DNA of 32,507 bases from an uncultured Christensenella sp. (GCA_964487575.1 CAZARP010000003.1:12178-44684), one strand, 5' to 3'. Positions 7,047-32,507 are shown, counted from the stretch's first letter. Numbers and translations are program-made. The notes: a model not told the origin generated them from the sequence alone.

Positions 7047-7184
7047 AAAGAAAAAAATCGTTTAGTTGCCGTTCGGATGTTTTTCTATTCGGAAAAAACC
7101 GTAAAAAACGATTGCTTTTTTTGACGGTATGGTATATACTAATTGAGTATAACGCTATTTTACACTTATTCAGTGGGAGGATAT

Positions 7185-11033: not shown

Positions 11034-11075
11034 TAATTCAAAGTGCGCGTTAATGGCGTTAAACAGAGGTGTAAG

Positions 11076-12395
11076 ATGTTAGTTAAAAGTAATACTTTTG
11101 CGTCTTTTGAAAGGACGGACGAACTTTTAAGCAATCCTTTTATAGGTTTCGTGGAATTTAATCACTTCGGGAACGGAAAACTTTTTTCGGACGAAGCGTT
11201 GGGTACGGATAAAGAAAGTTATCCAATAGCGGAGAACGTTTTGCAAATCGACAGGTCGCAAAGTTATCATCCCGACTCCACCGTCGTATACATAAGGATA
11301 CTTTGGAAGAATTTCGAAACTGCAAAAGACGTGTACGACTACGCTTTTATAGAAAGTATTCTGGCGGAAGCGAAAAAGCACGGGCAAAGCGTAATGCTCC
11401 GTCTTATGCCGCACACCACCAAACGCAACGAGGACATTCCCGAATATCTTAAAGAAGAAATAGAATATCCGGCTCGCCCCGATACCGAGAGGGTGAAAGA
11501 GTCGCCGACCGACCCGAAGTTTATAGACAGGTTTTGCAAGGCGGTGTACGCGCTGGGCGAAAAATTCGACGGCAGAGAAGAACTTTATGCGGTAGATATA
11601 TCTTTAACGGGTGCTTGGGGCGAGGGGCATATGTATGAAACTTATCCCGAGCAAGACGCCAAAAAACTTATGGATACTTATCTCGCGGCGTTTACGAGCA
11701 CGCCCTTGCTGGGACAGATATGCTCGCCCGAACTTAACGTATACGCGAATTCGGTTCACCCGATAGGGTACCGCGCGGACGGCTTCGGCAACGGCTTCCA
11801 TATGCTTAATTACTTCCCCGAACCTATTTATCTTATGCGAGATTTTTGGAGGAAATCGCCTATATCTTTCGAGGCGTATTGGTATATTTCCGAATGGGAC
11901 AGACAGGGCTGGGATATAGATTATATGATAGAACAGTCGCTCAAATGGCACATCAGCACGTTTAACAACAAGTCGTCGACCGTTCCCCTTAAATGGAAAG
12001 GCAAGGTGGAGGCTTGGCTTAAAAAAATGGGTTACCGCTTTGCTCTGCGTAACGTTCGTTATCCGTCGGAGGCGGCGGAGGGCGACACTTTGCAGATGTC
12101 TATGTGGATAGAAAACGCCGGCGTGGCGCCTATTTATAAACGCATACCGCTTAAAATCATGTTTAAAAATTCGGAACGTGCGGCGACGGTCGAAACGGAC
12201 GCGGACATAAGGGAATGGATGCCGGGCGACAGTATAGAACGTTTGTCGGTTAAACTTCCGAGCGAAGTAACCGAGGGCGAATACGATATTTTAGTCGGAA
12301 TAAGCGACGGTAAGGGGCTTGACGTAAAGTTTGCCACGGCGGCGGAAAAAGACGGGGTTTTCTTAAAGGTCGGTCAAATAAATATTAAGGCATAA
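11076..12395 (+). CDS. cytoplasmic TIM-barrel glycoside-hydrolase-like protein (DUF4874/DUF4832-like)
   Basis: The ATG at 11076 follows GAGGTG. There is no signal peptide. An N-terminal NPFIGF motif, a LTGAWGEGH segment and an overall length of about 440 aa match my recollection of DUF4874+DUF4832 proteins. The family assignment is from memory and was not searched. Confidence 0.5.
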   Translation: MLVKSNTFASFERTDELLSNPFIGFVEFNHFGNGKLFSDEALGTDKESYPIAENVLQIDRSQSYHPDSTVVYIRILWKNFETAKDVYDYAFIESILAEAKKHGQSVMLRLMPHTTKRNEDIPEYLKEEIEYPARPDTERVKESPTDPKFIDRFCKAVYALGEKFDGREELYAVDISLTGAWGEGHMYETYPEQDAKKLMDTYLAAFTSTPLLGQICSPELNVYANSVHPIGYRADGFGNGFHMLNYFPEPIYLMRDFWRKSPISFEAYWYISEWDRQGWDIDYMIEQSLKWHISTFNNKSSTVPLKWKGKVEAWLKKMGYRFALRNVRYPSEAAEGDTLQMSMWIENAGVAPIYKRIPLKIMFKNSERAATVETDADIREWMPGDSIERLSVKLPSEVTEGEYDILVGISDGKGLDVKFATAAEKDGVFLKVGQINIKA

Positions 12396-12410
12396 AGGAG
12401 GAGAAATATT

Positions 12411-13268
12411 ATGTTTAAACCGAAGTTGTCTACGAGCGTGTCGTTTGTTGTCGGCAAAGGGCTTGTCGACGGGGAATATCTTTATGATATCGACGAAAAG
12501 TTGTGCGAGCGTTTGAAAGAATTAAAGAAGTTGGGCTTCGACGCCGTTGAACTCGACGTGTGCGGAATGAATTACGCGTGGGCGGCGGAAAAAACGCTTA
12601 AATATTCGCTTGAAGCGGCACGCGAAGCAGATATTACGGTAAACAGCGTGCATTATCCGTTCGGCAATACGTGGGTGGATTTAGCCTCCCCGTGGGAAGC
12701 GGACAGAAAAGAAATAGTCAAGTGGTTCGGCAAGGTTTTCAAAATAACCGACGAATACGGCGTGCGAGCGCACGTGTTGCACCCGGGCGGCATAGACGTT
12801 ACCAAACCCGAACTTTACGACGTGTATAAAGACCGCTTCCACGACAGCGTGCGCGGACTTACAGAACTCACCGACGCGTACGTGTGTATAGAAGATATGG
12901 TCGGCGGCGAACTTTTCAATACCGTCGACAAGATGGAAGCGATGCTAAAAGCGGTACCGAAAGCGTGCATAGTGCTTGACGTCAATCACCTGTTGCACGA
13001 CACCCCGTACGACGCTGTTAAAAGGCTGGGAAACAGAATAAAAACGTTGCATATATCCGATTACGACTTCGTGTACGAACGGCACCTTATGCCGGGCGAG
13101 GGCAAGATAGATTGGAACCGCTTAATAGAAGAACTCGAAAACGTCGGTTACGACGGCAGGTTCAATTACGAGCTGAATATGGCGCAACACGGCTATACAT
13201 ACGAGCAGATAAAAGAGAATTACGAAAATCTTTTTGCCGATTATAGACAGTATAAGGCGACAAAATGA
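12411..13268 (+). CDS. sugar phosphate isomerase/epimerase (xylose-isomerase-like TIM barrel)
   Basis: Strong RBS (AGGAGG). The pattern is typical of the AP-endonuclease-2/xylose-isomerase-like TIM-barrel fold (VLHPG, CIEDM, VLDVNH, LHISDYD...ERHLMPGEGKIDWNRLIEELENVGYDGRFNYEL). Confidence 0.75.
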   Translation: MFKPKLSTSVSFVVGKGLVDGEYLYDIDEKLCERLKELKKLGFDAVELDVCGMNYAWAAEKTLKYSLEAAREADITVNSVHYPFGNTWVDLASPWEADRKEIVKWFGKVFKITDEYGVRAHVLHPGGIDVTKPELYDVYKDRFHDSVRGLTELTDAYVCIEDMVGGELFNTVDKMEAMLKAVPKACIVLDVNHLLHDTPYDAVKRLGNRIKTLHISDYDFVYERHLMPGEGKIDWNRLIEELENVGYDGRFNYELNMAQHGYTYEQIKENYENLFADYRQYKATK

Positions 13269-13364: not shown

Positions 13365-13590
13365 CTACCGAAAAAGGCGATTTGTGCATTAGTACGAAAA
13401 AGGACATAATAATTCAGAAAAAAAACCTTTACATCTCGCGGTAAAAGTGATAAAATAAATAAAAAAGAAAAATAAAAACACACGCGTGTTTTTGCAACGT
13501 ACGCGTTTTGCGTTGGATTGCAAAATAAAATCGTGAGGTTTTTACTGGTAAAATCGGCGGCAAACTCACCCGTGCCGAGTGAAAAAATTC

Positions 13591-13603: not shown

Positions 13604-13877
13604 TGCGGCTAAAAGAAATGACTTCGTTTAAGCCGTTTTTGCTGTTTTACGATATTACGTATCGGGAAATAAAGACGAAAAGGTTCTTCGTCGAATAAAA
13701 TTCAGACGATATAGGTGCTTTGAAAAATTAAAAAAGCCATATCGTCGTTTGTGCTTAAAAAAATTTGTTCTACTAACGTATAACAAACGCCACCGCAGCT
13801 TAGCGCTGCGGTGGCGGAGATAAAGATAGTAATATATAAGTTGCTATCGGTTTAAAACATTTTCGGGGGTGCTTTTT

Positions 13878-14798
13878 ATGGAAGACACCATAAAAGTTCA
13901 AAAAAAGCAAACCAAAAACACGTCTAAAAGGGACAGTATAATCTTCCTTTGCGTTCTTTTGGTCGTGCCTATCGTGCAGTGGTTGATTTTTTGGTTGTAC
14001 GTCAACATCCAATCGATCGCGCTGGCTTTCCAAGACCCGCGTACCGGCGTATTTACGCTTCAAAACTTTGCGACGTTTTGGGAAAACCTGACCAACCCTA
14101 TCGGTAACAACATAGGTATGGCGGTCAAGAACACTTTCTTGTTCTTCGGCTTGCACTTGTTCGTTACTATGCCGCTGTCGCTGGTCATCGCCTTTTTTAT
14201 GTATAAAAGGATATTCGGGTACAAGTTCTTCCGCGTTATGTTCTATATGCCGGCAATCGTTTCCGGCGTTGCGCTTACCGCGGCGTTTAAGCAGATAATA
14301 GACCCGACGGGACCTTTGGGTGCAATTATGCCGCGCGAGGGTATGCTTAATCATATGGAACTTGCCAACGTTGCGGTGATGATTTACTGTATATGGACGG
14401 GCTTCACGACCGACGTGCTGCTTTTCGGCGGCGGTATGGCGCGTATCCCGGTGGACGTGCTGGAAAGCGCCAAGTTGGAAGGCTGCGGCCCGTGGAACGA
14501 AATCACGCACATCGTGTTGCCGATGATATGGCCCACGGTGGCGACGCAGATAGTCTTTATATTCACGGGTATGTTCAATGCCGGCGGTCCCATATTGTTG
14601 TTGACAAACGGCGAATACAATACCACGACAGTCGCATTCTGGATATTCAAACAAGTGTACGGCGGTATCGGTTCGCTCGGCGGCACGGGTGTGTACAACC
14701 ACGCGTCTTGCGCAGGCTTGTGCTTTACGTTGGTAAGCATGCCGGTGATAATGTTCGTTAAGTGGGTGACCGGTAAGGTCGACTCGGTGGAATATTGA
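13878..14798 (+). CDS. carbohydrate ABC transporter permease (MalF/LplB-like)
   Basis: The ATG at 13878 follows a GGGGG SD sequence. The protein has multiple TM segments. The EAA loop is ESAKLEGCGPWNEITHIVLPMIWP. Confidence 0.85.
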   Translation: MEDTIKVQKKQTKNTSKRDSIIFLCVLLVVPIVQWLIFWLYVNIQSIALAFQDPRTGVFTLQNFATFWENLTNPIGNNIGMAVKNTFLFFGLHLFVTMPLSLVIAFFMYKRIFGYKFFRVMFYMPAIVSGVALTAAFKQIIDPTGPLGAIMPREGMLNHMELANVAVMIYCIWTGFTTDVLLFGGGMARIPVDVLESAKLEGCGPWNEITHIVLPMIWPTVATQIVFIFTGMFNAGGPILLLTNGEYNTTTVAFWIFKQVYGGIGSLGGTGVYNHASCAGLCFTLVSMPVIMFVKWVTGKVDSVEY

Positions 14799-14816: not shown

Positions 14817-15737
14817 ATGAAGTTATTCAAAAGACATAAGGCAAAAGACGAAGCCAGTATACTTACCTCCAGAACCACGGCGGAAAAGATTGTTTACGCT
14901 TTCGTTTTCGTTATCTTTTTGGCATACGCCGCAACGATAATATATCCGTTGCTGTATTTGGTGTCGAATTCTTTGTTGGACGGCTTGGATTACACTGACG
15001 GCTTGCGTGCTTTTTTCATACCGAAAAATCCGCAGTTTTCAAATTACGGCATCGCGCTGAGTTCGATGGCTATGCCGGACAGCAAGGGGCACGACATCGG
15101 TTTGCCGATGATGTTCTTTAACAGTATTTGGTACTGCGCGGTTATAATAGGCGGCGGAATTTTGATGAGCAGTTTCACCGGATACGCGCTCGCTAAATAT
15201 AATTTCAAATTGAAACCCATAATATATACCGTAGCGATATTCTCTATGACCATACCCATCGTAGGTACGACGGGCGCTATGTTTAAGTTGGTCAGCGACT
15301 TAGGGCTTTACAATACGCCGTTTTATGCGATTTGCACTTCGCTCGGCGGTTTCGGGTTTAACTTCCTCGTTATGTACGGGTTTTTCAGCAGTATCAGTTG
15401 GAGTTACGCGGAAGCTGTGTTTATAGACGGCGGCGGACACTTTACCGTGTTTTTTAAGATAATGTTGCCGCAAGCCAAAATGGCAATGCTTACCCTTGCG
15501 ATAGTGTCGTTTATAGGCACGTGGAACGATTATATGAACGTTCTTTTGTACTTACCCGACTATCCGACCGTCGCATCCGGTTTATATGCTTTGGAATATT
15601 CGCCCTTCGTTCGTAGCGGCAATATGCCGGCGTACTACGCGGGGCTTGTTATAGCCACCATACCGGTTATTATAATATTCGCTTGCTTCCAAGACACCAT
15701 AATGAAGAATTTCTCCGTCGGCGGTCTTAAAGGCTAA
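14817..15737 (+). CDS. carbohydrate ABC transporter permease (MalG/LplC-like)
   Basis: Six TM-like segments. The EAA loop is EAVFIDGGGHFTVFFKIMLPQAKMAM. The RBS AGGGGG lies upstream. Confidence 0.85.
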   Translation: MKLFKRHKAKDEASILTSRTTAEKIVYAFVFVIFLAYAATIIYPLLYLVSNSLLDGLDYTDGLRAFFIPKNPQFSNYGIALSSMAMPDSKGHDIGLPMMFFNSIWYCAVIIGGGILMSSFTGYALAKYNFKLKPIIYTVAIFSMTIPIVGTTGAMFKLVSDLGLYNTPFYAICTSLGGFGFNFLVMYGFFSSISWSYAEAVFIDGGGHFTVFFKIMLPQAKMAMLTLAIVSFIGTWNDYMNVLLYLPDYPTVASGLYALEYSPFVRSGNMPAYYAGLVIATIPVIIIFACFQDTIMKNFSVGGLKG

Positions 15738-20152: not shown

Positions 20153-21439
20153 ATGAAATTTTTGAAAAAAACGTTATGTTTTATATTTGCTCTCGCGTTA
20201 CTCTGCACGGCGGTATTCGCCGCCGGTTGCGGAGAGGTTCAAACCGACGACGACAACGCCGAAGCGGTTAAATCGGTGGAATTTAGGAACTTCGAACAAT
20301 GGGGACCCGATTTCCAGATAACCAGATTGTTGAGAAGCTTCGGCAAAGTATCCAGAAATACCGAGAAGCAATACGTTCACAACGGCGAGTATTCGATGAA
20401 GATACAGCCGATGGGCGGGTACTGGTACTACAGCGAGCCGATTATGTATTTCGAAACGATTTCCAAGCGTTTTAATTACGACTACAGCGACTTCACCAAG
20501 GTAGATTACGTTTCGATGTGGGTTTACAACGCCAACGACGTCGAAAAGACGGTAAAAGTAGGCTTGGTGACGAATATCGCCGATTATCAAACCATTACGT
20601 CGGCGGAGGGTACTAAGTTCACGCTTAAACCCGGTCAGTGGCAAGAAATCACCTATTACGTTGACTTCAACGCGATGAACGTTTCCACCACCGTCACGTC
20701 GGAGATGATGACTGCGATAAAGGGTATATACCTCGCTTTCGACAACGCTAAAACGGAAAATTTGGACGAGGCGCCGATATTCTATTTAGACGACGTTTAC
20801 ATCGGATACAAAGACGCGGAGAACACCGTTTCGGACGTTCTTCAGTTCGACGACGGCGAAATTTGCGATTTCGAAAAACTTTATCAAAAATACGTGTTCG
20901 TTCCCGTTACGCGCAGCATAAACGCCAAATGCGTTTCTCAGTTGGAAGTCGTCAGGGCGACCGACTGCGGTATAGAAGCGTCTTCCGGCAACAACGTGCT
21001 TAAGTTGACGGCAAGGTCGGGAGATACAAGCCGAGGTACTTGGCCCGGGTTCAATCTCCCGGCGTCGGTACTGCACGCTTCCGGTATAACGACCGTTGAC
21101 GAAAAGGATTACGAAAACACCTATTTCGCGTTCGACGTATACAACGCCGAGGCGGAAGACTTCGAGTTCTATATGGTTTTCAGGCAAAACGACAAGGGCT
21201 TTAAGTTGACCAAAATCCACAAGGCGACGGCAGGCGAATGGACTACCTTCAAAATTTCTCTCGCAGAACTCGGTTCGGTTAATTCGAGCGACGTGTTCAG
21301 CAGCGATTACGTGGCGAACGGCAGGGTAACCGACCCCCAAGACTTGCTTATATCTTACGGCGAGTTTTTGGGTGCGGAAGACGGCAGTCAGATAGAAAAG
21401 ATTTTCTATTTCGACAACTTCAGAATAATTCAACTGTGA
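20153..21439 (+). CDS. lipoprotein of unknown function, two copies of the array module (array member A)
   Basis: The ATG at 20153 follows AGGAG. Lipobox VFAAGC-GE. There are two roughly 180-200 aa segments. Their motifs are VDYVSMWVYNAN / QWQEITYYV / IFYLDDVYIGY and YFAFDVYNAE / EWTTFKISL / IFYFDNFRII. Confidence 0.6.
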   Translation: MKFLKKTLCFIFALALLCTAVFAAGCGEVQTDDDNAEAVKSVEFRNFEQWGPDFQITRLLRSFGKVSRNTEKQYVHNGEYSMKIQPMGGYWYYSEPIMYFETISKRFNYDYSDFTKVDYVSMWVYNANDVEKTVKVGLVTNIADYQTITSAEGTKFTLKPGQWQEITYYVDFNAMNVSTTVTSEMMTAIKGIYLAFDNAKTENLDEAPIFYLDDVYIGYKDAENTVSDVLQFDDGEICDFEKLYQKYVFVPVTRSINAKCVSQLEVVRATDCGIEASSGNNVLKLTARSGDTSRGTWPGFNLPASVLHASGITTVDEKDYENTYFAFDVYNAEAEDFEFYMVFRQNDKGFKLTKIHKATAGEWTTFKISLAELGSVNSSDVFSSDYVANGRVTDPQDLLISYGEFLGAEDGSQIEKIFYFDNFRIIQL

Positions 21440-21449
21440 GGAGGTAAAT

Positions 21450-23654
21450 ATGAAAAAGTTTTTAATTTCCGTATTGTCTCTTTTAACGTTGTTGTGCGTC
21501 TGCCTTGCCGCGGCGTGCGGCGGTCAAACCTCGACCGTAGAGTTGGTCGATTTTAAAGACGTGACCGTGGAAGCGGAAATCGGCAGCGTGGTTTCGTTGC
21601 AACCGTATTTGGTCGTCGCGGATAAAGACGGTAAAACCTATCATACGAGCGTTTCGATTAAGACCAAAGACGGCAAAGCGGTCGAAACGTTGATGTACGA
21701 ATTCAACGCAGACGATCACGACGGCTATATCGTGAGCGTTTCGTTGAAAATCGACGATAAATATTACGCTCGCACGGTGACGATAAATATGAAGGATACG
21801 TCTTCGCCGACGATAGTGATAGCGGACCTTCCCGACTTCGGCACCACGGGTGAAGAATATAAAGTAAAATATACGGTAAAAGACGCCAATCAAACGTCTT
21901 CCGAATTAAAGATAACTTTCGTTAACGCCGACGGCAGCGAAACGCCAGTCGAACACGTCGACGGCAAGTTTACGCCTTCTAAACCCGGCGAATACAAACT
22001 GACCGTAACGGCGACAGATAACAAGGGCAACCCCTCGGCTACGAGGAGCAAGACCTTCGTCGTTCGCGAAGTGCTTGCGGATTACTCTTTGGAAGAATTT
22101 TCGGATAAGTTCAGCGTGGACAACGCGACGAACTACCTCAACAATTTATCTTCGGATAAGCCCGTGTACAAAGACGAGTTGGACGGCAGATACGGCGTGG
22201 TCGGTCAGACCAGCCAAAGCGGCTATCACGATTTTTCGTTCAGATTTAACAGAAGCCTTTCTTGGCTTAACGGTATAGACGCTTCTTCGTGGGATTACGT
22301 TTCGATATGGATATATATCGACGACGAAGGCGAATACAACCTTTACACTTGGAACGCGAAGTACGACGCCACGGTTATAGGCAAACGCTGGACGGAAGTC
22401 AAACTTACCAAGTCTATGATAACCGAACAGAGGAGTTTATACGCTCAACACGGCGGCACGGTGGAAGCGTTCAACAAATTGCACAGTTCCGAGAACAAAG
22501 GATTTAAGATGTTCTGGATACACAGGTTGGATTTGCGGCAAGACGACCCCGAGCGCGTGCTCGACAACGTGTACGTGTACGTGGACTCCATTCGTTTCGG
22601 CAGAGATATAGCGACCTCGCTTGAAAAGACGGAGTACGTTCTCGGCGATACGGTAAAACTTTCCGCGACGGCAGACGGCGTGGGCGAGGCTAAGTTCTCT
22701 TACGAAGTCGTCGACGCAGACGGCAAAGTTACCGCGATAGAGGGCGACGAATTCATCCCGACAAAACCCGGCGAATACACCGTCCGCGCGACCCTTTTAG
22801 GTAACGCTTACGGCGTTGCGGAAACTAAAATAACGGTCAGAAACAACGTGGAAATCTCTGCGAAAAAGCATACCGAAATTTTGGTAAACGATACGGTCGT
22901 CATTCCGCAAGGCGTCGTAATAGACGTGAGAAGCGGCGCAAAACTTGACGGCGTCGTATCGTTAAAGGTTGTAGACGCGGCAGGGGAAGAAGTCACGCTC
23001 GGTATAGACGGCGCGTTGAAGTCCACCAACGTGGGCGACAGTTACACCGTTACGTACACCGCGGAAGCGAACGGCGAGGCTTTGGAACTTTCTTACACGG
23101 CGGTGACCGTCAGAAACTACGCTCGCAGTATAAACGAATTCAGCGACGCATCGACGGTAACAGGCATCGTACCGAAAACCGATAACGACAAGTCAACGAC
23201 CGATCCCGAGTGGTTGGCGGAATTCGAGGGCAGAACGGGCGTCGTAAAAGCGCACGTGCCGAAGAACGACAGCATATATCAGAACTTCTGCGTGCAGGGC
23301 GAAACGGACAGCGTTACTTTGAGGGAGTATATGTTAGAACACGACGCCGAGTGGGATTATATCTCCGCGTGGGTGTATATAAACATAGAGGGCGAAGTTA
23401 ATTGCATTATCAACAGAGCAAACGTAAAAGTACGAGGCAAAACCTGGTACGAGGTCAAGATAACCAAAGAAGACATCTTAAACAACGACAAAAGCTTGTA
23501 TAAAAAATGCGATAACGACGACAACCCCTATTGCAACGTCGCAAACATATTCTCCACCACAAAGGTTAAAGAATATTTGATTTGTATCGTCGATAACACT
23601 CATTCCGACAACGTTATTTATATCGACAGCATAAGGCTCGAAAAGAACGCGTAA
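21450..23654 (+). CDS. lipoprotein of unknown function: Ig-like repeats alternating with two copies of the array module (array member B)
   Basis: RBS GGAGG. Lipobox LAAAC-GG. The Ig-like segments share F.P.KPGEY...T..D patterns (FTPSKPGEYKLTVTATD, FIPTKPGEYTVRATLL). The two modules carry DGRYGVVGQ / WDYVSIWIYI / RWTEVKLT / VYVYVDSIRFG and EFEGRTGVVKA / WDYISAWVYI / TWYEVKIT / VIYIDSIRLE. Confidence 0.65.
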   Translation: MKKFLISVLSLLTLLCVCLAAACGGQTSTVELVDFKDVTVEAEIGSVVSLQPYLVVADKDGKTYHTSVSIKTKDGKAVETLMYEFNADDHDGYIVSVSLKIDDKYYARTVTINMKDTSSPTIVIADLPDFGTTGEEYKVKYTVKDANQTSSELKITFVNADGSETPVEHVDGKFTPSKPGEYKLTVTATDNKGNPSATRSKTFVVREVLADYSLEEFSDKFSVDNATNYLNNLSSDKPVYKDELDGRYGVVGQTSQSGYHDFSFRFNRSLSWLNGIDASSWDYVSIWIYIDDEGEYNLYTWNAKYDATVIGKRWTEVKLTKSMITEQRSLYAQHGGTVEAFNKLHSSENKGFKMFWIHRLDLRQDDPERVLDNVYVYVDSIRFGRDIATSLEKTEYVLGDTVKLSATADGVGEAKFSYEVVDADGKVTAIEGDEFIPTKPGEYTVRATLLGNAYGVAETKITVRNNVEISAKKHTEILVNDTVVIPQGVVIDVRSGAKLDGVVSLKVVDAAGEEVTLGIDGALKSTNVGDSYTVTYTAEANGEALELSYTAVTVRNYARSINEFSDASTVTGIVPKTDNDKSTTDPEWLAEFEGRTGVVKAHVPKNDSIYQNFCVQGETDSVTLREYMLEHDAEWDYISAWVYINIEGEVNCIINRANVKVRGKTWYEVKITKEDILNNDKSLYKKCDNDDNPYCNVANIFSTTKVKEYLICIVDNTHSDNVIYIDSIRLEKNA

Positions 23655-23674
23655 CGCTTATCGGGAGAGAGAAG

Positions 23675-24955
23675 ATGTTAAAAAAAATATTAGCGATTAT
23701 CCTTGCGCTCGCGGCGGCATTGTCCGTTTGCGGGTGCGGGGGCGCGGAAGACGAGGGGGATAAATCCGACGTAACGCCGCCGGGCAACACGGTCGAAACG
23801 CCGACCCCGACGGACGACCCCGAATTGGATTACACCGCTTACGACTTCGACGATACGGTAGGGGTTGCGACGACGTTCGGCGACGGCAGTAAAGAAACGC
23901 TTTACGTAGATACGTCCGACCCGTCGCAAGCCGATAACTTCGGCACGACCGGAGGTGTTTGCGAAGTAGGGTATTTAAACAAGGCGGACGAAGCCTTGCG
24001 CGACCCTGCCGACCCGTACGTGCCGGAAGAATACGGCGGATATGCGTACGTGCGCAACGTAAACAAGTATACGTACGTCAACGTCCGCGTTAAGCCGCAG
24101 TGCTCTAAAGAAGATTTTCTTCTTGCTGACTATATAGAAATGCAGGTCTTCTGCAATAAAGAAGTCCGCGTGAGTTACGGCAACATGCACCTCGCCACGG
24201 TGAAGAAGTTCACTTGGACGACTATCCGTTATTCGACGGAAATATGGCGTGCTTCCAAGCACAGCAACCAAGTATACAGTTCGGTGACGTCGAAATCGGA
24301 TTTTTACGATATGCTAAGTCGCGACGGCTCGTCGCTTGCGGGTAAACCCGGCGTAACGGAAGAAGCCGCGAAGACAGACGCCAACAACGGCAAAATGCTG
24401 ATGATAACCGGTTACGGCAGCGAAGGTGCGGAAGCAAACGATTATTCTTTTTATATAGCCGACGTAAAAATCGGTATAGAAGAAACGAACGTCAAAGCCG
24501 GCAGAAACTTCGCGGACGTGTCGGAGGACGGCATAAGCTTGCCGTACGGCAGCGTAAAAGAAGTTCTCTTCCGCGGCGTGGACGCGGTGGAAATAACTAC
24601 GGACGACAAAAACGTTCAGCGCGAACTTAAAGTATTGGTAAAACCCGAAAAGCGTTTCGACCAGTTAAAATATTACGACAGCGTAGTCGTGAGAATGTTG
24701 GTGCAAACGGAAGGGGATACGGCGGATATTTACGCGTACGTACCCAATAACGTCTCTTATTTAGAGGATCAACTCAAAATAAAAACCGTACCGGTTAACG
24801 TGTGGGTCAACGTGGAAATCCATATAGACTTCGTTAAGTCGATGTACCCGGGCATATATACGGGCACGCACTCGCTGTTCGTGTACAAAAGCGACGTGGC
24901 GAAACCGGTAACAATTTACGTATCCGACATAATGCTTTGCAAAAACGCGGATTGA
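23675..24955 (+). CDS. lipoprotein of unknown function, two divergent copies of the array module (array member C)
   Basis: Lipobox LSVCGC-GG, followed by a Pro/Thr/Asp linker. The divergent modules carry ADYIEMQVFCN / FTWTTIRY / FYIADVKIGIE and YDSVVVRMLVQ / VWVNVEIHI / TIYVSDIMLCK. Confidence 0.55.
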   Translation: MLKKILAIILALAAALSVCGCGGAEDEGDKSDVTPPGNTVETPTPTDDPELDYTAYDFDDTVGVATTFGDGSKETLYVDTSDPSQADNFGTTGGVCEVGYLNKADEALRDPADPYVPEEYGGYAYVRNVNKYTYVNVRVKPQCSKEDFLLADYIEMQVFCNKEVRVSYGNMHLATVKKFTWTTIRYSTEIWRASKHSNQVYSSVTSKSDFYDMLSRDGSSLAGKPGVTEEAAKTDANNGKMLMITGYGSEGAEANDYSFYIADVKIGIEETNVKAGRNFADVSEDGISLPYGSVKEVLFRGVDAVEITTDDKNVQRELKVLVKPEKRFDQLKYYDSVVVRMLVQTEGDTADIYAYVPNNVSYLEDQLKIKTVPVNVWVNVEIHIDFVKSMYPGIYTGTHSLFVYKSDVAKPVTIYVSDIMLCKNAD

Positions 24956-25050
24956 CGTAAAAACACTAAAGTGACTTAAATTTTGCGACCCGACGATTTA
25001 TTTGATTTATTAAATAAGTTAAAAACCTATTAAAGGAGGGTTTATAAAAG

Positions 25051-25185
25051 ATGAAAACTTACACAAAACCGTCGTTAGAAATGTTCGCTTTTGAAAAAGT
25101 AGATATTCTATCGACAAGCGGCGACAAGAAGGACCAAGACGCACAGTGGGTGTCCACGTGGACCGACGAGTCGTTCTGGAACTAA
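25051..25185 (+). CDS. unannotated 44-codon ORF (MKTYTKPSLEMFAFEKVDILSTSGDKKDQDAQWVSTWTDESFWN)
   Basis: AGGAGG at 25034-25039 lies 11 nt before the ATG at 25051. The TAA stop at 25183-25185 sits immediately before the GGAGGG RBS of the next gene. It is too short for the supplied ORF track. Coding status is unproven. Confidence 0.4.
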   Translation: MKTYTKPSLEMFAFEKVDILSTSGDKKDQDAQWVSTWTDESFWN

Positions 25186-25196
25186 CGGAGGGCACT

Positions 25197-27935
25197 ATGA
25201 AGAAACTATCGCTTAAAAGAATAGGTCTTATATCGGTATGCTTCGTTATGGCGCTCGCGTCGTTTATGTGTTTCGGCAAGGTATCCGCAAAGGCTGAAGA
25301 AGAAGCCGCGTCGGTTACCGTTAACGAAGAGTACGTTAAAGCAAACTTGCAAGTTTCAGGGTATTCTTTGCGTTTGCCGGCACTCGGCGACGACGAAACT
25401 CAGCCGGGTATCAGGGCAGTCGTTACCATGTCCGACGAGATGTATAACGCTCTCGAAGGCACGGATTACGCGACCGGTACCTTGTTCATCGCCAAGGCTA
25501 ACGCTAACGGCGCGGAAATCAAAATCGATACCGCGGACGTAAGCAACACCGTGACGACCGACGGCTGGTATCAGCGCAGCGACGCAAAACACGCGACTAA
25601 CGTAGTTTTGGTCGGCATCACCTCCGAACACGTCAACACTTCGGTTATCGCTCGCGGCTATATCACCATAGGCACGACGACGTATTATTCCGAAGCCGGC
25701 AACCCCGTCAGCATGGCAAGCGCCGCAAGGAGCCTCTATGACAGCGCCGAAACGGACGATGCGATGAAGGATATGCTTAAAACCGCTTATCTTCCCGCTC
25801 TTTCCGTAAAAATCGACAACGCCCCGCAAGAAGGCGTTATTTACGGCGACAAACTCACTCAACCTGAATGCGTCGCGGAACCGAACACCTATTTGAAAGG
25901 TTACTACAACACTGCGGAAACGGGTAAATGGGATTTTGAGAACAACACCGTAACGGGTACTACCAACTTACATAGCGTTGCGTCTAACGTAATGACGTTG
26001 GAAGACTTTAACCAACCGTATTCGGTTAACTCGGTCCGTACAAACTGGACGACCGACGCGCCCGTGTACCACAAGACTTTCGAAGGCAGAAACGGCGTCG
26101 TGGAAGTTACCACTACCAGCGGATACGGCAACTTCGGCTTCAAGTCGGCTATGTCTAAAGAACAATTACAAGAAATAATCGACGCAAGCGACTTCGACTA
26201 CCTCTCTATTTGGGTATACTTTAAGTCTACCACCCAAACCACGGTTAAATTAAGTCAAGCCGGTTACGACGGAGTCGTTGACGAAATCAAAGCCAACGAA
26301 TGGCAAGAAGTAAAAATCGCAAAAGAAATCGTTACTAAAACGAACTGGGCGCAGAGCGGAAGCAACTTCGTAGAAGCTTTCCGTGCAGACTCCAACGTTG
26401 CGGCTCACACCTTCTGGAGTCAAAGCATGAAGAAGGCCGACGGCACGCTTTACGTAGACAGCATCGGTTTGGGTAAAGAAGTAACGATAACCGTACCCGA
26501 CAGAGTTTACGTAGGCGACACCGCAAAATATTCGGTAAGCATCAATGCCGACTCTTCCGCTTATACGACAAACGTAGTCGTAACTTGTGACGACGAAGTA
26601 ATAAGCGTTTTCGACGAAGGCATCGTCGCAGACAAAATCGGTATGTATAAAATTTCCGCTACCGTTACCTATAAGGGCGCAACTTACACTGCGGAAAAGA
26701 CATTGAACGTCGTTACCGCGGACAACGTCCTCGGCGATTACCTCGACGGCAATATAGAGGGCTGCAACCCGAACGGTGACAAGAGTGCCGAATACCTTGC
26801 AAGTTATATGGGCAGATACGGCGTTATGAAGGCTTATACCAACGGCGACTATCGTAATTTATTCGTTAGAGTACCCGGCAACGCAAGCGACGTAAAAGCC
26901 AAGATGGAAGCGACCGATTACGACTATATTTCCGTATGGTTGTGGGTAGACGCCGAATTGTCTGCCGGCGCTTTCAAAGCGACTTTACGTAACGGCTACA
27001 CGAGGATACCCGTACAGACTTGGTACGAATTAAAGATTACCGCGGAAAACGCAGGGGACTATTACAGCAACTATGTTAACGGTGCTCTTGCAAGCGGTTC
27101 GGGTGACCAAAAATGGTTGTTCTGGTCGCAAGAAATTCCGGAGAGCACTGCTATCTATATCGACAGCGTATCGCTCTGCAAAGATATAGAGTTGACTACC
27201 GAAATCACCGATAACACCATAGCGTTGTCGGCGGCTATAGACGGCGTAGAGGACGCGACGTTTACTTACAACGTAATCGGACCCGACGGTAAAGACGTAG
27301 AACTTATCGACAACAAGTTTACCGCAACGGCAAACAACCCCTATCAAGTAGAAATAACCGCTAAATACAACGGTAACGTAACGAAGACGGTTAAGGTAGT
27401 TTCCTTAAACGAAGGTTTGTTAACCGGTATCAACAACAGTTACGAGACTAACTTCCTCGCCGCAAGCGGAACAGAAATGGTTAACGAATACTTGACCGAG
27501 TTCGAAGGCGCAAACGGCGTAGTTAAACTCAGCGGTCAGCACGCTTCCGACGCCGACCTTAACACTGCGATAGGTTATCAAAACATCCATTACAAAGCCG
27601 GCAAGTCGGTTGAAGAAATCAACGCAATGGCTACGGCGACCGACGCCGACGGCAACGCTAAATACACCAAGTTGGTGTTCAGAGTGTACGTCGCTCCGTA
27701 CGTAGCGGAAACCGAAACGGTACGCGTAGGTTTCTTGGCAAGCGAAATAGACGTTAAGACGGGCGAATGGGTGGACGTAGAAGTCGCGTTAAGCAGCGAT
27801 AACCTCTATAACAGCATTTCGTTAGGCAACCGTTGCGGTTGGGACAGCGCCGTAACGTTCAACAGACCGTTTATGTATCTGTGCAACACGCAACCCGGTA
27901 CGCTTATCTACTTAGACTGCATTTATTTTGCGTAA
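25197..27935 (+). CDS. large secreted protein of unknown function, three copies of the array module separated by Ig-like spacers (array member D)
   Basis: The ATG at 25197 follows GGAGGG. The signal peptide is type I-like (MKKLSLKRIGLISVCFVMALASFMCFGKVSA-KAEE) with no clear lipobox. The N-terminal roughly 260 aa include a segment resembling a Listeria-Bacteroides (Flg_new-like) repeat (IYGDKLTQPE...GYYNTAETGKWDFENNTVTGTTNL). The three modules carry TFEGRNGVVEV / FDYLSIWVYF / EWQEVKIA / TLYVDSIGLG, YMGRYGVMKA / YDYISVWLWV / TWYELKIT / AIYIDSVSLC and EFEGANGVVKL / LVFRVYVA / EWVDVEVAL / LIYLDCIYF. Confidence 0.65.
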   Translation: MKKLSLKRIGLISVCFVMALASFMCFGKVSAKAEEEAASVTVNEEYVKANLQVSGYSLRLPALGDDETQPGIRAVVTMSDEMYNALEGTDYATGTLFIAKANANGAEIKIDTADVSNTVTTDGWYQRSDAKHATNVVLVGITSEHVNTSVIARGYITIGTTTYYSEAGNPVSMASAARSLYDSAETDDAMKDMLKTAYLPALSVKIDNAPQEGVIYGDKLTQPECVAEPNTYLKGYYNTAETGKWDFENNTVTGTTNLHSVASNVMTLEDFNQPYSVNSVRTNWTTDAPVYHKTFEGRNGVVEVTTTSGYGNFGFKSAMSKEQLQEIIDASDFDYLSIWVYFKSTTQTTVKLSQAGYDGVVDEIKANEWQEVKIAKEIVTKTNWAQSGSNFVEAFRADSNVAAHTFWSQSMKKADGTLYVDSIGLGKEVTITVPDRVYVGDTAKYSVSINADSSAYTTNVVVTCDDEVISVFDEGIVADKIGMYKISATVTYKGATYTAEKTLNVVTADNVLGDYLDGNIEGCNPNGDKSAEYLASYMGRYGVMKAYTNGDYRNLFVRVPGNASDVKAKMEATDYDYISVWLWVDAELSAGAFKATLRNGYTRIPVQTWYELKITAENAGDYYSNYVNGALASGSGDQKWLFWSQEIPESTAIYIDSVSLCKDIELTTEITDNTIALSAAIDGVEDATFTYNVIGPDGKDVELIDNKFTATANNPYQVEITAKYNGNVTKTVKVVSLNEGLLTGINNSYETNFLAASGTEMVNEYLTEFEGANGVVKLSGQHASDADLNTAIGYQNIHYKAGKSVEEINAMATATDADGNAKYTKLVFRVYVAPYVAETETVRVGFLASEIDVKTGEWVDVEVALSSDNLYNSISLGNRCGWDSAVTFNRPFMYLCNTQPGTLIYLDCIYFA

Positions 27936-28091: not shown

Positions 28092-28229
28092 ATCCGAAGA
28101 GGGGAAAAGTATTTTATTTTGTCGGAACCACTCGCGTTTCCGAGTCGCTTTAGGGGTACCTCCTTCTTCCCCGTCGGCGGCTCGGTACGCGGGTGTTCTG
28201 AATATTATCGGAAAAAAGCGAGGTTTGCT

Positions 28230-29768
28230 ATGAAAAAATCGGTTAAAATTTTCGACGGAGAGTGTTGGTACGGCGGAAACTGCTGTCGAACCGACAAGAA
28301 CTTTTTTCTCGACGCGAAGTCTGAATATAAGTTCGACGTTTTAATCGACGCCAACAATCAGACGGCTTCGCTTTTGCTGTCGTCGTTCGGCAGGTATATT
28401 AAAACGAGTTCGGCTTTTACCGTAAGCGTTTCAAACGGGGTTATAGAGATCGACAGTCCGACCGCGATAGAGGTGAGCGACGAGGGGACCTCTTTAAAAG
28501 ACGCGTACCGGATGGCTTGCAAAAGGTACTTCCCCTTTAGCGGAAAGGTTCCGCAATTAAAGTTTTTCACCACGGCGCAGTACAACACGTGGATGGAATA
28601 CGATTATCGGTTAGATCAAAAGGGCGTTTTGGATTACGCGCACAAGATTGTCGACAACGGCTATGCGCCCGGCATTTTGATTTTGGACGAGGGCTGGCAC
28701 AATCATTACGGGTTGTGGGAATTCGACAAGATAAAATATCCCGACCCGAAAACGATGATAGACGAACTCCACTCGCTGGGGTTTGTCGTTATGCTGTGGG
28801 TAGTGCCGTACGTCACCGCCGACGGTTACGACTTCATTACCGCTCGCGATAAGGGTTTGTTCTTGCGCACGGACGACGGTAACGTAGCTTTGATGCGCTG
28901 GTGGAACGGTTGCAGCGCCGTGCTTAATATGAAGTGCGAGGCGGACAGAAACTATCTGTCGCAAAAGTTGGACGTTTTGATGAAAGATTACGGCGTCGAC
29001 GGGTTTAAGTTCGACGGCGGCAATGTCAGCGCGTTTGCACCGAGCTGGGTTTTAAGCGGCAAACAGACCGAGTACACGGCGGAAGAATTGAACGCGGCGT
29101 GGAACGAGTTCGGCGAGGATTACGAATATCACGAATATAAAGACAGTTTCAACTGCGGCGGCAAGGCGGTTATACAGCGTATTCGCGACCGCAGCCACAG
29201 TTGGGACGACGACGGGCTTAACACGCTGGTACCGACCGCGATTACGCAGGGGCTTATGGGGTATCCGTTTATCTGTCCCGATATGATAGGCGGCGGCGAA
29301 TGGACGTTTAACTATAAAGAGGGGTTCGTTGTCGACGAGGAGCTTTTCGTCAGAATGGCGCAATGTTCGGCGCTCTTTCCGATGATGCAGTTTTCTTGGG
29401 CGCCGTGGCGAGTTTTAAGCGAGGATATGCAAAAAATCGCGCTGTCTGCAGCTAAACTGCACGCGAAATTTGCCGATTACATTACTTCTTTAGTAAAAAA
29501 CACCGCCATAACCGGCGAGCCGATTATACGGTGTTTGGAATATCAATATCCGCAATGCGGATACGAAAGAATTTACGACCAGTTTATGCTCGGCGACGAC
29601 GTGCTCGCGGCGCCCGTGCTTAAAAAGGGAGAGTACAAGAGGAAGGTGGTTTTGCCGCAAGGCGAGTGGCTATACCTCGGCACGACCCCGATACGCGGCG
29701 GTGCGGAAGTAACCGTCGACGCGCCGATAGAGGTGTTGCCGTACTTCGTTAAAGTCAAGAACGACTAA
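28230..29768 (+). CDS. GH31-like glycoside hydrolase (cytoplasmic, short form)
   Basis: The ATG at 28230 follows GAGGT. There is no signal peptide. The TIM-barrel signature is PGILILDEGWHNHYGLWEFDKIKYPDPKTMIDELHSLGFVVMLWVVPYV. The nucleophile-region-like segment YGVDGFKFDGG compares with VDCFKTDFGE of YicI-type GH31. PDMIGGGEW is also present. The TTG-extended track start at 28119 is unlikely. Confidence 0.65.
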   Translation: MKKSVKIFDGECWYGGNCCRTDKNFFLDAKSEYKFDVLIDANNQTASLLLSSFGRYIKTSSAFTVSVSNGVIEIDSPTAIEVSDEGTSLKDAYRMACKRYFPFSGKVPQLKFFTTAQYNTWMEYDYRLDQKGVLDYAHKIVDNGYAPGILILDEGWHNHYGLWEFDKIKYPDPKTMIDELHSLGFVVMLWVVPYVTADGYDFITARDKGLFLRTDDGNVALMRWWNGCSAVLNMKCEADRNYLSQKLDVLMKDYGVDGFKFDGGNVSAFAPSWVLSGKQTEYTAEELNAAWNEFGEDYEYHEYKDSFNCGGKAVIQRIRDRSHSWDDDGLNTLVPTAITQGLMGYPFICPDMIGGGEWTFNYKEGFVVDEELFVRMAQCSALFPMMQFSWAPWRVLSEDMQKIALSAAKLHAKFADYITSLVKNTAITGEPIIRCLEYQYPQCGYERIYDQFMLGDDVLAAPVLKKGEYKRKVVLPQGEWLYLGTTPIRGGAEVTVDAPIEVLPYFVKVKND

Positions 29769-30610
29769 TTGGACGACTTCCTCGGTTTTCTTTTGGGCGG
29801 CGGATCGTCGGGGAATTTGTATCGACGATACTGCGCCGGCGACATTTGCACTTCTTCGGTAAAGACGATGCAAAAATAGTTTTGCGAGGCAAAACCGCAA
29901 GCTTCGGCGACTTCCGCAATGGTTTTTGCGGAGGTGGTAAGCAGGTTTTTCGCTTGCGCAATTCTGACGCTTTGCAGATATTCGTTTATCGACGAACCCG
30001 TGTCGTGTTTGAATTCCCGACATATAAGGGTTTTTGACAGGTTCAATAGGGCGGACAAGTCGTCCAGCGTGATTTTTTTAGAGTAGTTTTTGGTTATGTA
30101 CTCTATCATCTTTTTGGTCCGCGCGGAGTAGGCGTTGCCCGGACGGAATTTTTCGGTCGGGAAGCCGCTTAACGATTTTAACCGCAGTACGAAAAACGAA
30201 AAGCAGACTTGCGTTTCGTATTCACGCGCTTGTATGGTGCGGCGCTGTTTGAATTGCTGGGCTTCTTCCAATAAACCTAAAATTTGCAGAAGTTCGCGCC
30301 GTTCTTCGTCGGTAACGTGAATTACCTGTTTGACGCACATGTCGATTACCGAACGTTGAAAATCGTCCAAATACGTGGCGGTAAAGTCGATTTTTACTCG
30401 GTTGTAAGGACCGCCTTCCATTCTGTGCAGACAGTAGGGCGGAATACACAATAAAGAATTGCCGTCGATATGGTAAACTTCGTTCTCTATCGTGACGGTA
30501 CGCGTACCGTCGAGCAGAAAATACAGTTCGTAATGTATGTGAGAGTGGAAGTTATATGCCGAGAACGCTTTTTCGCTCGACAGTTTTTCATACATGCAGA
30601 ATTTCATCAT
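29765..30610 (-). CDS. AraC-family transcriptional regulator (cupin sensor domain plus HTH)
   Basis: The N-terminal cupin-like part is HSHIHYELYFLLDGTRTV...LLCIPPYCLHRMEG. The C-terminal double HTH is ITLDDLSALLNLSKTLICREFKHDTGSSINEYLQSVRIAQAKNLL...IAEVAEACGFASQNYFCIVF. Its 3' end overlaps the GH31 gene's 3' end by 4 nt. Confidence 0.85.
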   Translation of the reverse strand: MMKFCMYEKLSSEKAFSAYNFHSHIHYELYFLLDGTRTVTIENEVYHIDGNSLLCIPPYCLHRMEGGPYNRVKIDFTATYLDDFQRSVIDMCVKQVIHVTDEERRELLQILGLLEEAQQFKQRRTIQAREYETQVCFSFFVLRLKSLSGFPTEKFRPGNAYSARTKKMIEYITKNYSKKITLDDLSALLNLSKTLICREFKHDTGSSINEYLQSVRIAQAKNLLTTSAKTIAEVAEACGFASQNYFCIVFTEEVQMSPAQYRRYKFPDDPPPKRKPRKSSN

Positions 30611-30764: not shown

Positions 30765-32507
30765 ATGCAATCGTTTATTTTTAACCGATTAAAATTTAAT
30801 ATTGTCGGCGACAAAATCTCGCTTCGCGGTTTGGGCGTTTACGCGCCCGACGACGCGGTTTTGAAAGGCAACTTCGCGGAGTTTCAGGTGGCAGGCGAAA
30901 ACCGACCCAGTCGGTACGGCAACAAACAGATTTGCTCGTCCGAGGGGGCGCGGCTTAAATACGTTTCGCACTCGATACGCGGCGACGTGCTTACCGTAAT
31001 TCAAAAAAGCGAGCTTTTAGAGGTTAAAACGGTAATAAGCGCTCACGTCGGGACGAGCGTTTTAAGCGTTTATTCGGTTGCCGAAAACGTTTCGGGCGGC
31101 GCGCTGACTTTGACGGAGGCTGCGGCGTTTTGTTTGCCGTACGTTGCGGACGTGTCGGAAAAAACCGCAGAAAACCTTTCTTTTTTCAGGTTCGAACAAG
31201 GGCATCATACCGAATGTCGCGTACACGAAGCGTCTTTTGCGCAGTCGGGGATTGCGACGTGCGAGCCGGACGGACAGCGCGCGCTTGGTTTTACCAACGT
31301 CGGCAGTTGGTCTACAAAAGAAGAACTTCCTCAAGGGATTATAAAATCGCCCGACGGCGCGCTGTTCTTTCAGATAGAAAGCGACGCGTCTTGGCGGTAC
31401 GAGATAAGCGACGGCGGCGACGGGTATTATCTGCTTGTCGGCGGTCAGTCGGAATGTTACACCGGTTGGAGCGTTAATTTGGCGCACGGAGAGAGTTACA
31501 CGACGGAAATCGTCGCGCTTTGCCGCGAAAAGACCGTCGGCGACGCTATCGCGCAGATGAGCGCGTATCGTAGAATTATTTGCGGCAAGTGTGAGGCGGA
31601 TAGGGATATGCCGGTTATTTTTAACGAATATATGCACTATTCTTGGGACAGCCCGACGGAAGAAAACACGGCGTACAACGCTCCGATTGTCGCGGACGTC
31701 GGCGCGGATTATTACGTCATCGACTGCGGCTGGCACGACGAGGTGCCCGGAAACGAGATTTATCCGTACGTCGGAGAGTGGAAGGAGAGTAAAACGCGTT
31801 TTCCGCACGGCGTAAGACGGATTACCGATTATATCCGCTCGCTCGGTATGCGCGCGGGGTTATGGATAGAACCCGAAGTCGTCGGCGAACGCTGTTATAA
31901 AATGCTCGACTATTACGGCGACGAGTGCTTCGTAAAAAGGTACGGCAAAAAAGTTTGCGTAAACGGGAGGTACTTCCTCGACTTCCGCAAACAAAAAGTC
32001 GTCGATTATTTAAGCGAAACAATTCGCAGAATGGTCGAAGACTACGGCGCCGATTACGTAAAATTAGATTACAATCAAGATATGGGCGTCGGGACGGAAG
32101 TCGACGCGGCAAGCTTCGGCGACGGGCTTAAAAAGTGTCGCGACGCTTACGCCGCTTGGGTGGACGGTATAAGGCGGCGCTTCCCGAACGTTATTTTCGA
32201 AACGTGTTCTTCGGGCGGACTTAGAATGGATTACAAAACGCTTAGGCGGTTTTCTTTGGTTTCGACTTCCGACCAGACGGATTATCTTAAATACAGGGCG
32301 ATTGCGGCGAACGTGCTTGCTTGCGTTTTGCCCGAACAAGCCGCCGTGTGGAATTATCCGGTCGACTGCAAGGTTCCGCCCAACGTGGAATTCGTTCCGT
32401 CGAAAGACTGGGTGAAAGAGAACGTTTCGGAAGAACAAATCGTTACCAACGTCGTAAATTCTCTGCTCGGCAGGATGCACCTTGCCAGCCGTATAGGGTT
32501 GCTCGGT
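30765..32507 (+). CDS. GH36 alpha-galactosidase-like glycoside hydrolase, 3'-truncated by the window edge
   Basis: I translated this frame codon by codon. It is open for 581 codons from the ATG at 30765 to the last base. GH36 hallmarks are present: YYVIDCGWHDE, GMRAGLWIEPE, YVKLDYNQD (nucleophile-region K-x-D-x-N), ETCSSGGLRMDY and STSDQTDY. It is absent from the ORF track, presumably because no stop codon lies within the window. Confidence 0.85.
   Translation, partial: MQSFIFNRLKFNIVGDKISLRGLGVYAPDDAVLKGNFAEFQVAGENRPSRYGNKQICSSEGARLKYVSHSIRGDVLTVIQKSELLEVKTVISAHVGTSVLSVYSVAENVSGGALTLTEAAAFCLPYVADVSEKTAENLSFFRFEQGHHTECRVHEASFAQSGIATCEPDGQRALGFTNVGSWSTKEELPQGIIKSPDGALFFQIESDASWRYEISDGGDGYYLLVGGQSECYTGWSVNLAHGESYTTEIVALCREKTVGDAIAQMSAYRRIICGKCEADRDMPVIFNEYMHYSWDSPTEENTAYNAPIVADVGADYYVIDCGWHDEVPGNEIYPYVGEWKESKTRFPHGVRRITDYIRSLGMRAGLWIEPEVVGERCYKMLDYYGDECFVKRYGKKVCVNGRYFLDFRKQKVVDYLSETIRRMVEDYGADYVKLDYNQDMGVGTEVDAASFGDGLKKCRDAYAAWVDGIRRRFPNVIFETCSSGGLRMDYKTLRRFSLVSTSDQTDYLKYRAIAANVLACVLPEQAAVWNYPVDCKVPPNVEFVPSKDWVKENVSEEQIVTNVVNSLLGRMHLASRIGLLG

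Follow-up and report, generated by a model that had tools for sequence, protein, structure and literature searches.

How gut bacteria forage for glycans is understood mechanistically mainly in Bacteroidota, where SusC/D and surface glycan-binding proteins (SGBPs) define polysaccharide utilization loci (PULs). We know of no comparable conserved surface module described from Gram-positive gut bacteria. Here we analyze a 32,507-nt stretch of DNA from an uncultured Christensenella sp. (GCA_964487575.1 CAZARP010000003.1:12178-44684), hereafter the window, to whose whole length all positions refer. Four directly consecutive genes on its plus strand, A to D (20153-27935), encode exported proteins with repeated modules that resemble carbohydrate-binding modules (CBMs). 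A preliminary description of this DNA had counted nine copies of an unassigned module in the four proteins and proposed that they capture glycans at the cell surface for an ATP-binding cassette (ABC) importer encoded upstream. The reading that we favor, with fair but not high confidence, is that A to D are non-catalytic extracellular glycan-binding proteins, forming the substrate-capture part of a PUL-like cassette in a Gram-positive gut Clostridium.

The closest described proteins are those of the SGBP-B type, namely, BoSGBP-B of the xyloglucan locus (5E7G/5E7H), the Bacteroides uniformis protein (7K44), and BtSGBP-B (7KWB), the last of which has an immunoglobulin (Ig)-like domain and two CBM-like domains, each glycan binding, arranged as "beads on a loose string" (PMC7974029). 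Like A to C, SGBP-B proteins are lipid anchored and non-catalytic, and, as for A to D, their genes neighbor those of a glycan importer and of an endo-type enzyme at the surface. The order of Ig-like domains followed by CBM-like beta-sandwiches is also similar. In contrast, the organism here is a Gram-positive Clostridium without an outer membrane and without SusC/SusD, and the transporter partner is an ABC system. Whereas SGBP-B has one or two binding domains, relatives of the proteins described here have up to 7 modules each. In addition, eight of the nine modules have no match to the SGBP-B family PF18329, and the ninth, A2, stays under its gathering score.

With the beta-jelly-roll type B/C CBMs (CBM11, 22, 4, 16, 29, 30, and 61), the modules share a predicted beta-sandwich and a length of ~160 to 180 residues. 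They differ in having helical insertions, in forming stand-alone proteins instead of being appended to a catalytic domain, and in sequence, as Pfam CBM models have no significant match in A to D, in 61 whole members of the module family, or in 45 excised modules. The modules could nevertheless belong to an already numbered CBM family, for instance a recently created one. The Sas6 and Sas20 proteins of Ruminococcus bromii are likewise stand-alone surface glycan-binding proteins of gut Clostridia that work with enzymes and importers. Reportedly, they use established CBM families or dockerins and form part of amylosomes. By comparison, Pfam detects no dockerin, cohesin, or known CBM in A to D or the 61 family members.

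At the level of the locus, Gram-positive PULs (gpPULs; Sheridan et al. 2016, PMC5320581) are defined as loci that combine glycosidases with an ABC transport system and a regulator of the AraC type (PMC13543919). The same set is present here, in the form of glycoside hydrolase (GH) family 123-like, GH31, and GH36 enzymes, two permeases with a solute-binding protein (SBP), and an AraC gene. However, described gpPULs are not known to have a fixed core, whereas here a five-gene core is constant and the flanking enzymes vary, which is nearer to the Sus-like logic of Bacteroidota. There are no SusC (TonB-dependent transporter) or SusD domains in the window, and the locus is therefore not a Bacteroidota-type PUL. 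Literature searches found no description of this cassette or module, and we regard the unannotated CBM-like/SGBP-B-like module branch, set in a cassette that is conserved in an uncultured lineage of gut bacteria, as new.

The repeated module of proteins A to D

Signal peptides were read directly from the sequence. Lipoboxes are present in A (...VFAAGC), B (...LAAAC), and C (...LSVCGC), while D has a type-I signal peptide with cleavage between ...GKVSA and KAEEE, which bears out the three lipoproteins and one secreted protein first described. All four proteins are presumably exposed at the cell surface. No catalytic domain is found in A to D by Pfam or NCBIfam, in agreement with the earlier statement that no catalytic motif is recognizable. 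Residues 130 to 205 of B match PKD and Y_Y_Y above the Pfam cutoff. The spacers that alternate with modules in B and D are similar to one another (z up to 13.4) and also resemble this PKD-like part of B (residues 120 to 209), so that their designation as Ig-like holds. The N-terminal domains of B and D were considered as further modules and ruled out by hhalign.

The proposed nine copies (A1, A2, B1, B2, C1, C2, and D1 to D3) were compared pairwise by Smith-Waterman alignment against 200 shuffles. Homology is plain for five of them, B1, B2, D1, D2, and D3, with z scores of 4.3 to 28.5 in nine of the ten pairs, the exception being B1-D3 (z 1.4). The nearest pairs are B1 with D1 and B2 with D2, implying that duplication involved a multi-module ancestor. 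The same test relates A1 to D1 (z 6.3) and C2 to D2 (z 4.8) and gives no significant score for A2 or C1. An independent profile, iterated on database modules with A and C never in training, scores all four copies from these two proteins in register (A1, 23.8 bits; A2, 24.8; C1, 22.4; C2, 36.2), above the shuffle maxima of 13.3 bits for A and 8.9 bits for C (500 shuffles each). By hhalign against the module profile, the N- and C-terminal domains of A reach 92% (E 6e-7) and 83% (E 1e-5), and C1 and C2 reach 63% (E 7e-5) and 94% (E 1.5e-7); three unrelated domains of the same locus, taken as controls, are each below 1%. The profile and hhalign scores thus support all nine copies as homologous repeats, C1 being the weakest. 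As to the details first given, the six quoted motif coordinates are all exact. The start of C1 at 23830 is one base out of frame, the in-frame start being 23831, and the motif [EYT][FLM][ED]GR.GV[VM], described in six copies, occurs in its strict form in three and in the loose form G[RA].GV in five.

The module family is real but rare. A profile HMM of the five clear modules, run exhaustively with HMMER against 1.84 billion protein cluster representatives, retrieves 200 representatives at E<=1e-3, of which 93 are at E<=1e-10, mostly with 2 to 8 matched stretches per protein. The same profile has no match in a word-indexed protein search, which with whole D returns only D itself and one 76% relative, and a genome scan with B likewise has no match. 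A lipobox, by a PROSITE-like rule, is present in 77 of the 146 family members that start with M. When Pfam was run on the 61 whole members and the 45 excised modules, the module region remained uncovered, and the only families co-occurring in the 61 proteins were Ig-like. No catalytic domain is contiguous with the modules in these proteins or in A to D; they are stand-alone proteins of the binding type. Over the 45 modules, complete or near-complete invariance is seen only at G34, G37, V38, W106, Y156, and D158 (D1 numbering).

Predicted fold and relation to SGBP-B

An AlphaFold2 model of D1, made with the 45-module alignment, is a beta-sandwich with short helices (predicted local distance difference test score [pLDDT], 89.1; predicted template modeling [TM] score, 0.86). 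A model of whole A, made with 81 orthologues (pLDDT 90.8), has two beta-sandwich domains, at residues 40 to 219 and 236 to 427. Both models are as expected if the modules are binding domains of the beta-sandwich type. In Foldseek searches of the PDB, the best matches of D1 are CBM11, the CBM-like domain of GH50 agarases, CBM8, CBM22, CBM4, CBM29, CBM16, CBM30, and CBM61. The top match of the A model is SGBP-B of Bacteroides thetaiotaomicron (7kwb_B, E 5e-9); it also matches SGBP-B 7K44 (E 5e-6), as well as CBM22 and CBM16 at TM scores of 0.6 to 0.7 on the target (CBM22, 0.69).

Searches of all PDB sequences with A to D singly give nothing meaningful. With the 45-module profile, SGBP-B is the only match below E 0.1 (7K44, 3.8e-4; 5E7H/5E7G, 0.02 to 0.04), the alignment running from the W-x-x-x-x-I strand to the C-terminal Y-x-D strand. 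CBMs among the PDB sequences are matched neither by this profile nor by the single proteins. In Pfam, PF18329 (SGBP_B_XBD) scores 21.8 bits on A2 (aa 269-426, E 2.3e-4), with a gathering score of 26.4, and has no match in B, C, D, or any of the 45 isolated modules. Among the A orthologues, which fall in 98 clusters, 15 of 81 are matched (E<=0.01, best 7e-9), and the match is precomputed on two. The sub-threshold score and the orthologue matches place the A2 lineage as a fringe member of PF18329, with the other modules outside. The module was thus rightly called unassigned for eight copies, which lack a Pfam hit, and not for A2, which appears to be a divergent PF18329-type domain. The likeness to SGBPs of Bacteroidota, originally proposed as functional analogy, goes further: the top PDB sequence matches and PF18329 on A orthologues indicate that it is probably remote homology.

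Beta-jelly-roll folds also host enzymes, for example, GH16 and several polysaccharide lyase families, and A to D are without annotated function, both of which would suit a reading in which at least one of the four is a jelly-roll glycosidase, lyase, or esterase with an uncatalogued motif. However, the (nearly) invariant positions are limited to the six above and include no conserved acidic catalytic motif, there is no enzyme match in Pfam, NCBIfam, or the PDB, and the fold matches fall on the CBM parts of enzymes and not on their catalytic domains. Since no catalytic-type motif is conserved, we reject a cryptic enzymatic role, which we regard as very improbable.

A cassette shared among gut Clostridia

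One genome per GTDB species was scanned with the A alignment, yielding 29 further loci. All are in metagenome-assembled genomes (MAGs), from human, chicken, sheep, yak, reindeer, and horse gut, and all but four are labelled Clostridia, Christensenellales, Ca. Borkfalkia, Ca. Gallimonas, or Ca. Scatosoma, the exceptions being labelled Firmicutes (one), Bacilli (two), and Lachnospiraceae (one). NCBI taxonomy places Borkfalkia within Christensenellales. By local HMM annotation, nearly all 29 loci keep a five-gene core, permease-permease-SBP-GH123-like-A, so the proposed tie of A to D to the upstream importer extends to a conserved gene order. Module-protein loci in three NCBI MAGs read likewise: permease, permease, SBP, GH123-like protein, an A orthologue of 408 to 438 aa, and one or more module proteins. 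Of ~30 loci, the window and L001 to L004 included, ~18 have module proteins (1 to 7 modules) immediately after the core, and no C-like gene was found in the loci other than the window.

Two cassettes, on different contigs, occur in each of at least four genomes (L008/L022, L013/L031, L020/L024, and L028/L032), which suggests paralogous expansion, as in PULs of Bacteroidota. The other neighbors are mostly glycosidases and differ between loci; among 100 annotated open reading frames (ORFs) are GH20 (8), GH109 (6), GH36 (5), GH28 (5), GH78 (3), DUF4838 (3), CE2 (3), GH39 (3), GH42 (3), and GH3 (2).

With the core GH123-like lipoprotein as a profile, the PDB entry 8K2F, an oligosaccharide-releasing beta-N-acetylgalactosaminidase, is matched at 2e-33. 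The D356-E357 pair of the lipoprotein is kept without change in 28 orthologues. In DUF4091-containing beta-N-acetylgalactosaminidases, a DE motif is the catalytic pair, acting by substrate-assisted catalysis (PMC11087588). The invariant pair and the match to 8K2F suggest that the lipoprotein is probably an active surface glycosidase of the beta-N-acetylhexosamine (HexNAc) type. Together with the frequent GH20 and GH109 genes of sister loci, this core is a hint, and only that, of HexNAc-containing, host-type glycans as the ligand class. The last ~200 aa of the GH123-like protein end in a CBM-like closing strand, TIYFKDVVVYYK. No module homology is detectable in this region, and as a candidate tenth module it was rejected, with 0.2% in hhalign and no module HMM match.

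The module proteins are of two kinds, B-type lipoproteins and D-type proteins with a type-I signal peptide and an N-terminal domain of their own. This domain (aa 31-262 of D; nt 25287-25982) is common, at ~170 to 280 aa, to the D-type proteins of L002, L010, L012, L016, L018, L020, and L024. It has the motif GASVRL...GIRF in relatives and, in D and L002, ends in a Listeria-Bacteroides (Flg_new) repeat, apart from which it has no PDB or Pfam relative. The domain might retain the anchor-less D at the surface. Directly upstream of the D-type gene, a small ORF of 39 to 46 aa is found in eight of eight loci examined: in the window and at 9844-9981 in L002, 12574-12693 in L010, 13538-13675 in L012, 8512-8649 in L016, 11938-12078 in L020, 13668-13793 in L024, and 15009-15143 in L030. 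In six loci, 5 to 43 nt separate it from the D-type gene; for L012 and L024, the D-type start as extended by a crude ORF caller overlaps the small ORF. The encoded peptides have the motif MKK.Y.KP.h.h...DV[LV]T[AST]S, after which come an acidic run and, close to the end, a W. They lack a signal peptide, and neither Pfam nor NCBIfam has a match for them.

Strict co-conservation links A to the GH123-like enzyme and the SBP, which would fit an obligate protein partner as well as a glycan-binding one. The modules could then be protein-protein interaction or scaffold domains that join the SBP, the GH123-like enzyme, and the lipoproteins, or wall stalks, without binding glycans. Their conserved residues are structural, with no obvious shared aromatic platform, and D, lacking an anchor, might dock onto another component. 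However, the nearest relatives by fold and sequence, CBMs and SGBP-B, are glycan binding; the high copy number and strong divergence of the modules (24 to 35% identity) are typical of binding modules with diversified specificity; and a stalk role is already filled by the Ig-like spacers. We therefore consider a scaffold function unlikely.

The gut origin of all related loci (humans, chickens, ruminants, reindeer, and horse) and the multi-repeat Ig-plus-lectin-like architecture are also what might be seen for adhesins, the modules binding host mucus or the glycans of other cells for attachment and nutrient capture being secondary. In contrast to this expectation, the genes stand in an operon-like string that also encodes an ABC importer and glycosidases, with gaps of 10 to 20 nt from the SBP gene through C and no convincing plus-strand terminator inside the string. 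The linkage to the importer, kept across 29 loci, argues for a nutritional role, and attachment as the primary function seems distinctly unlikely.

Several observations weigh against glycan capture by A to D. The TM scores of D1 to solved CBMs are modest (0.42 to 0.47), and SGBP-B is missing from its top 50 fold matches. The sequence matches to SGBP-B, at E 4e-4 to 0.04, are marginal and do not reach beyond the C-terminal half of the module. The six conserved residues look like core or structural positions with no shared binding site, so conservation does not itself point to a ligand. D is without an evident anchor. A simple one-locus-one-glycan model does not predict variable cytoplasmic GHs beside a GH123-like enzyme that stays the same. 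Surface glycan capture feeding the ABC importer nevertheless agrees with the fold, the conserved importer link, and the similarity to SGBP-B, from which we infer glycan binding by the modules; the scaffold, adhesin, and cryptic-enzyme alternatives are less well supported.

Locus organization and implications

The plus-strand gene string runs unbroken from the two permeases through the SBP, the GH123-like lipoprotein, and A to D to GH31 (Table 1), and its genes are likely co-transcribed. A promoter-like site at 13428-13456 precedes the string. A perfect 12-bp GC-rich hairpin at 13788-13816, between the TIM-barrel gene and permease 1, is probably a terminator marking the start of the cassette transcription unit. 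In L003 and L004, too, an AraC gene lies beside the cassette.

Table 1. Features of the cassette, with positions in the 32,507-nt window
Feature	Position (nt)	Strand	Basis
ABC permease 1, opening the conserved cassette	13869-14798	+	PF00528; homologue at the same place in related loci
ABC permease 2	14817-15737	+	PF00528; place kept in related loci
Large solute-binding lipoprotein (SBP), 547 aa	15790-17433	+	PF01547, TIGR03850-like; lipobox SAVGC; place kept in related loci
GH123/DUF4091-like lipoprotein, 895 aa	17451-20138	+	PF13320 at 1.8e-9; 8k2f profile match
Protein A, lipoprotein with two tandem CBM-like beta-sandwiches	20153-21439	+	AlphaFold2, fold, PF18329, hhalign
Module A1, ~aa 40-219	20270-20809	+	
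Module A2, ~aa 236-427	20858-21433	+	
Protein B, lipoprotein: N-terminal beta domain, PKD-like Ig, B1, two Ig-like spacers, B2	21450-23654	+	
Module B1, aa 210-386	22077-22607	+	Module HMM
Module B2, aa 557-733	23118-23648	+	Module HMM
Protein C, lipoprotein with two degenerate modules	23675-24955	+	Profile bits, hhalign
Module C1	~23828-24481	+	
Module C2	~24575-24946	+	
Small ORF, 44 aa, directly upstream of D	25051-25185	+	Homologues in related loci
Protein D: type-I signal peptide, N-terminal domain, Listeria-Bacteroides-type repeat, D1 to D3 with Ig-like spacers	25197-27935	+	
Module D1, aa 264-428	25986-26480	+	Module HMM
Module D2, aa 508-663	26718-27185	+	Module HMM
Module D3, aa 738-912	27408-27932	+	Module HMM
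GH31 glycosidase without signal peptide (cytoplasmic)	28227-29768	+	PF01055, PF21365; N-terminus
AraC-family regulator, divergent	29765-30610	-	PF12833, PF00165, PF02311
GH36 (melibiase) gene, cut by the window end	30765-32507	+	PF02065, matched in the 689-aa product encoded on the longer contig L001

The genes upstream of the cassette are prs-pth-mfd, an order typical of Bacillota, which together with the lipoboxes and the Clostridia MAG relatives indicates a Gram-positive host. An ORF of 644 aa after mfd (7143-9077) has no Pfam match. Just upstream of the cassette, at 11043-13268, are DUF4832/DUF4874 (weakly GH42-like) and xylose-isomerase-like TIM-barrel genes; as both families recur downstream of the L002 cassette, they may belong to the pathway.

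In the route that we propose, A, B, and C would be tethered to the membrane by their N-terminal lipid and D would be secreted through its type-I signal peptide, each displaying two or three CBM-like modules, which in B and D are carried by Ig-like spacers in a beads-on-a-string arrangement. The modules would hold soluble or mucosal glycan at the cell surface, where the GH123/DUF4091-type lipoprotein may cut oligosaccharides off the captured glycan. Judging from family membership, the large lipoprotein SBP and the two permeases would import the fragments. The GH31, GH36, and DUF4832 enzymes, none of which has a signal peptide, could complete degradation in the cytoplasm under AraC control. A would be the invariant partner of transporter and enzyme, with B-, C-, and D-type proteins as a variable capture layer.

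A broader reading is possible, and we put it forward tentatively, as somewhat doubtful in its entirety. Gut Clostridia of the Christensenellales type would use a true Sus-like paradigm, in which an invariant capture-cut-import core (an LplABC-type importer, the oligosaccharide-releasing GH123-like enzyme, and the SGBP-B-homologous A) is duplicated within genomes and paired with varied B/C/D capture proteins and cytoplasmic glycosidases, each copy for another glycan. On this view, Bacteroidota and Bacillota would have the SGBP-B-type domain in common, through either descent or transfer, and the B/D module would constitute a new family of CBMs. The small ORF that precedes every D-type gene would be an unrecognized accessory, perhaps an anchor, chaperone, or signal.

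The module family (~200 clusters) and the A family (~100), for which "hypothetical" is the only annotation, together identify a recurrent cassette in a gut lineage that is poorly represented in culture, comprising Borkfalkia, Gallimonas, Scatosoma, and relatives. The constant GH123-like enzyme is a testable point of entry to the glycans consumed by these organisms. Should the modules prove to bind glycans, they would establish a new CBM family, would serve as a sequence marker for Gram-positive glycan-utilization loci in metagenomes, and would extend the SGBP-B type of binding domain beyond Bacteroidota.

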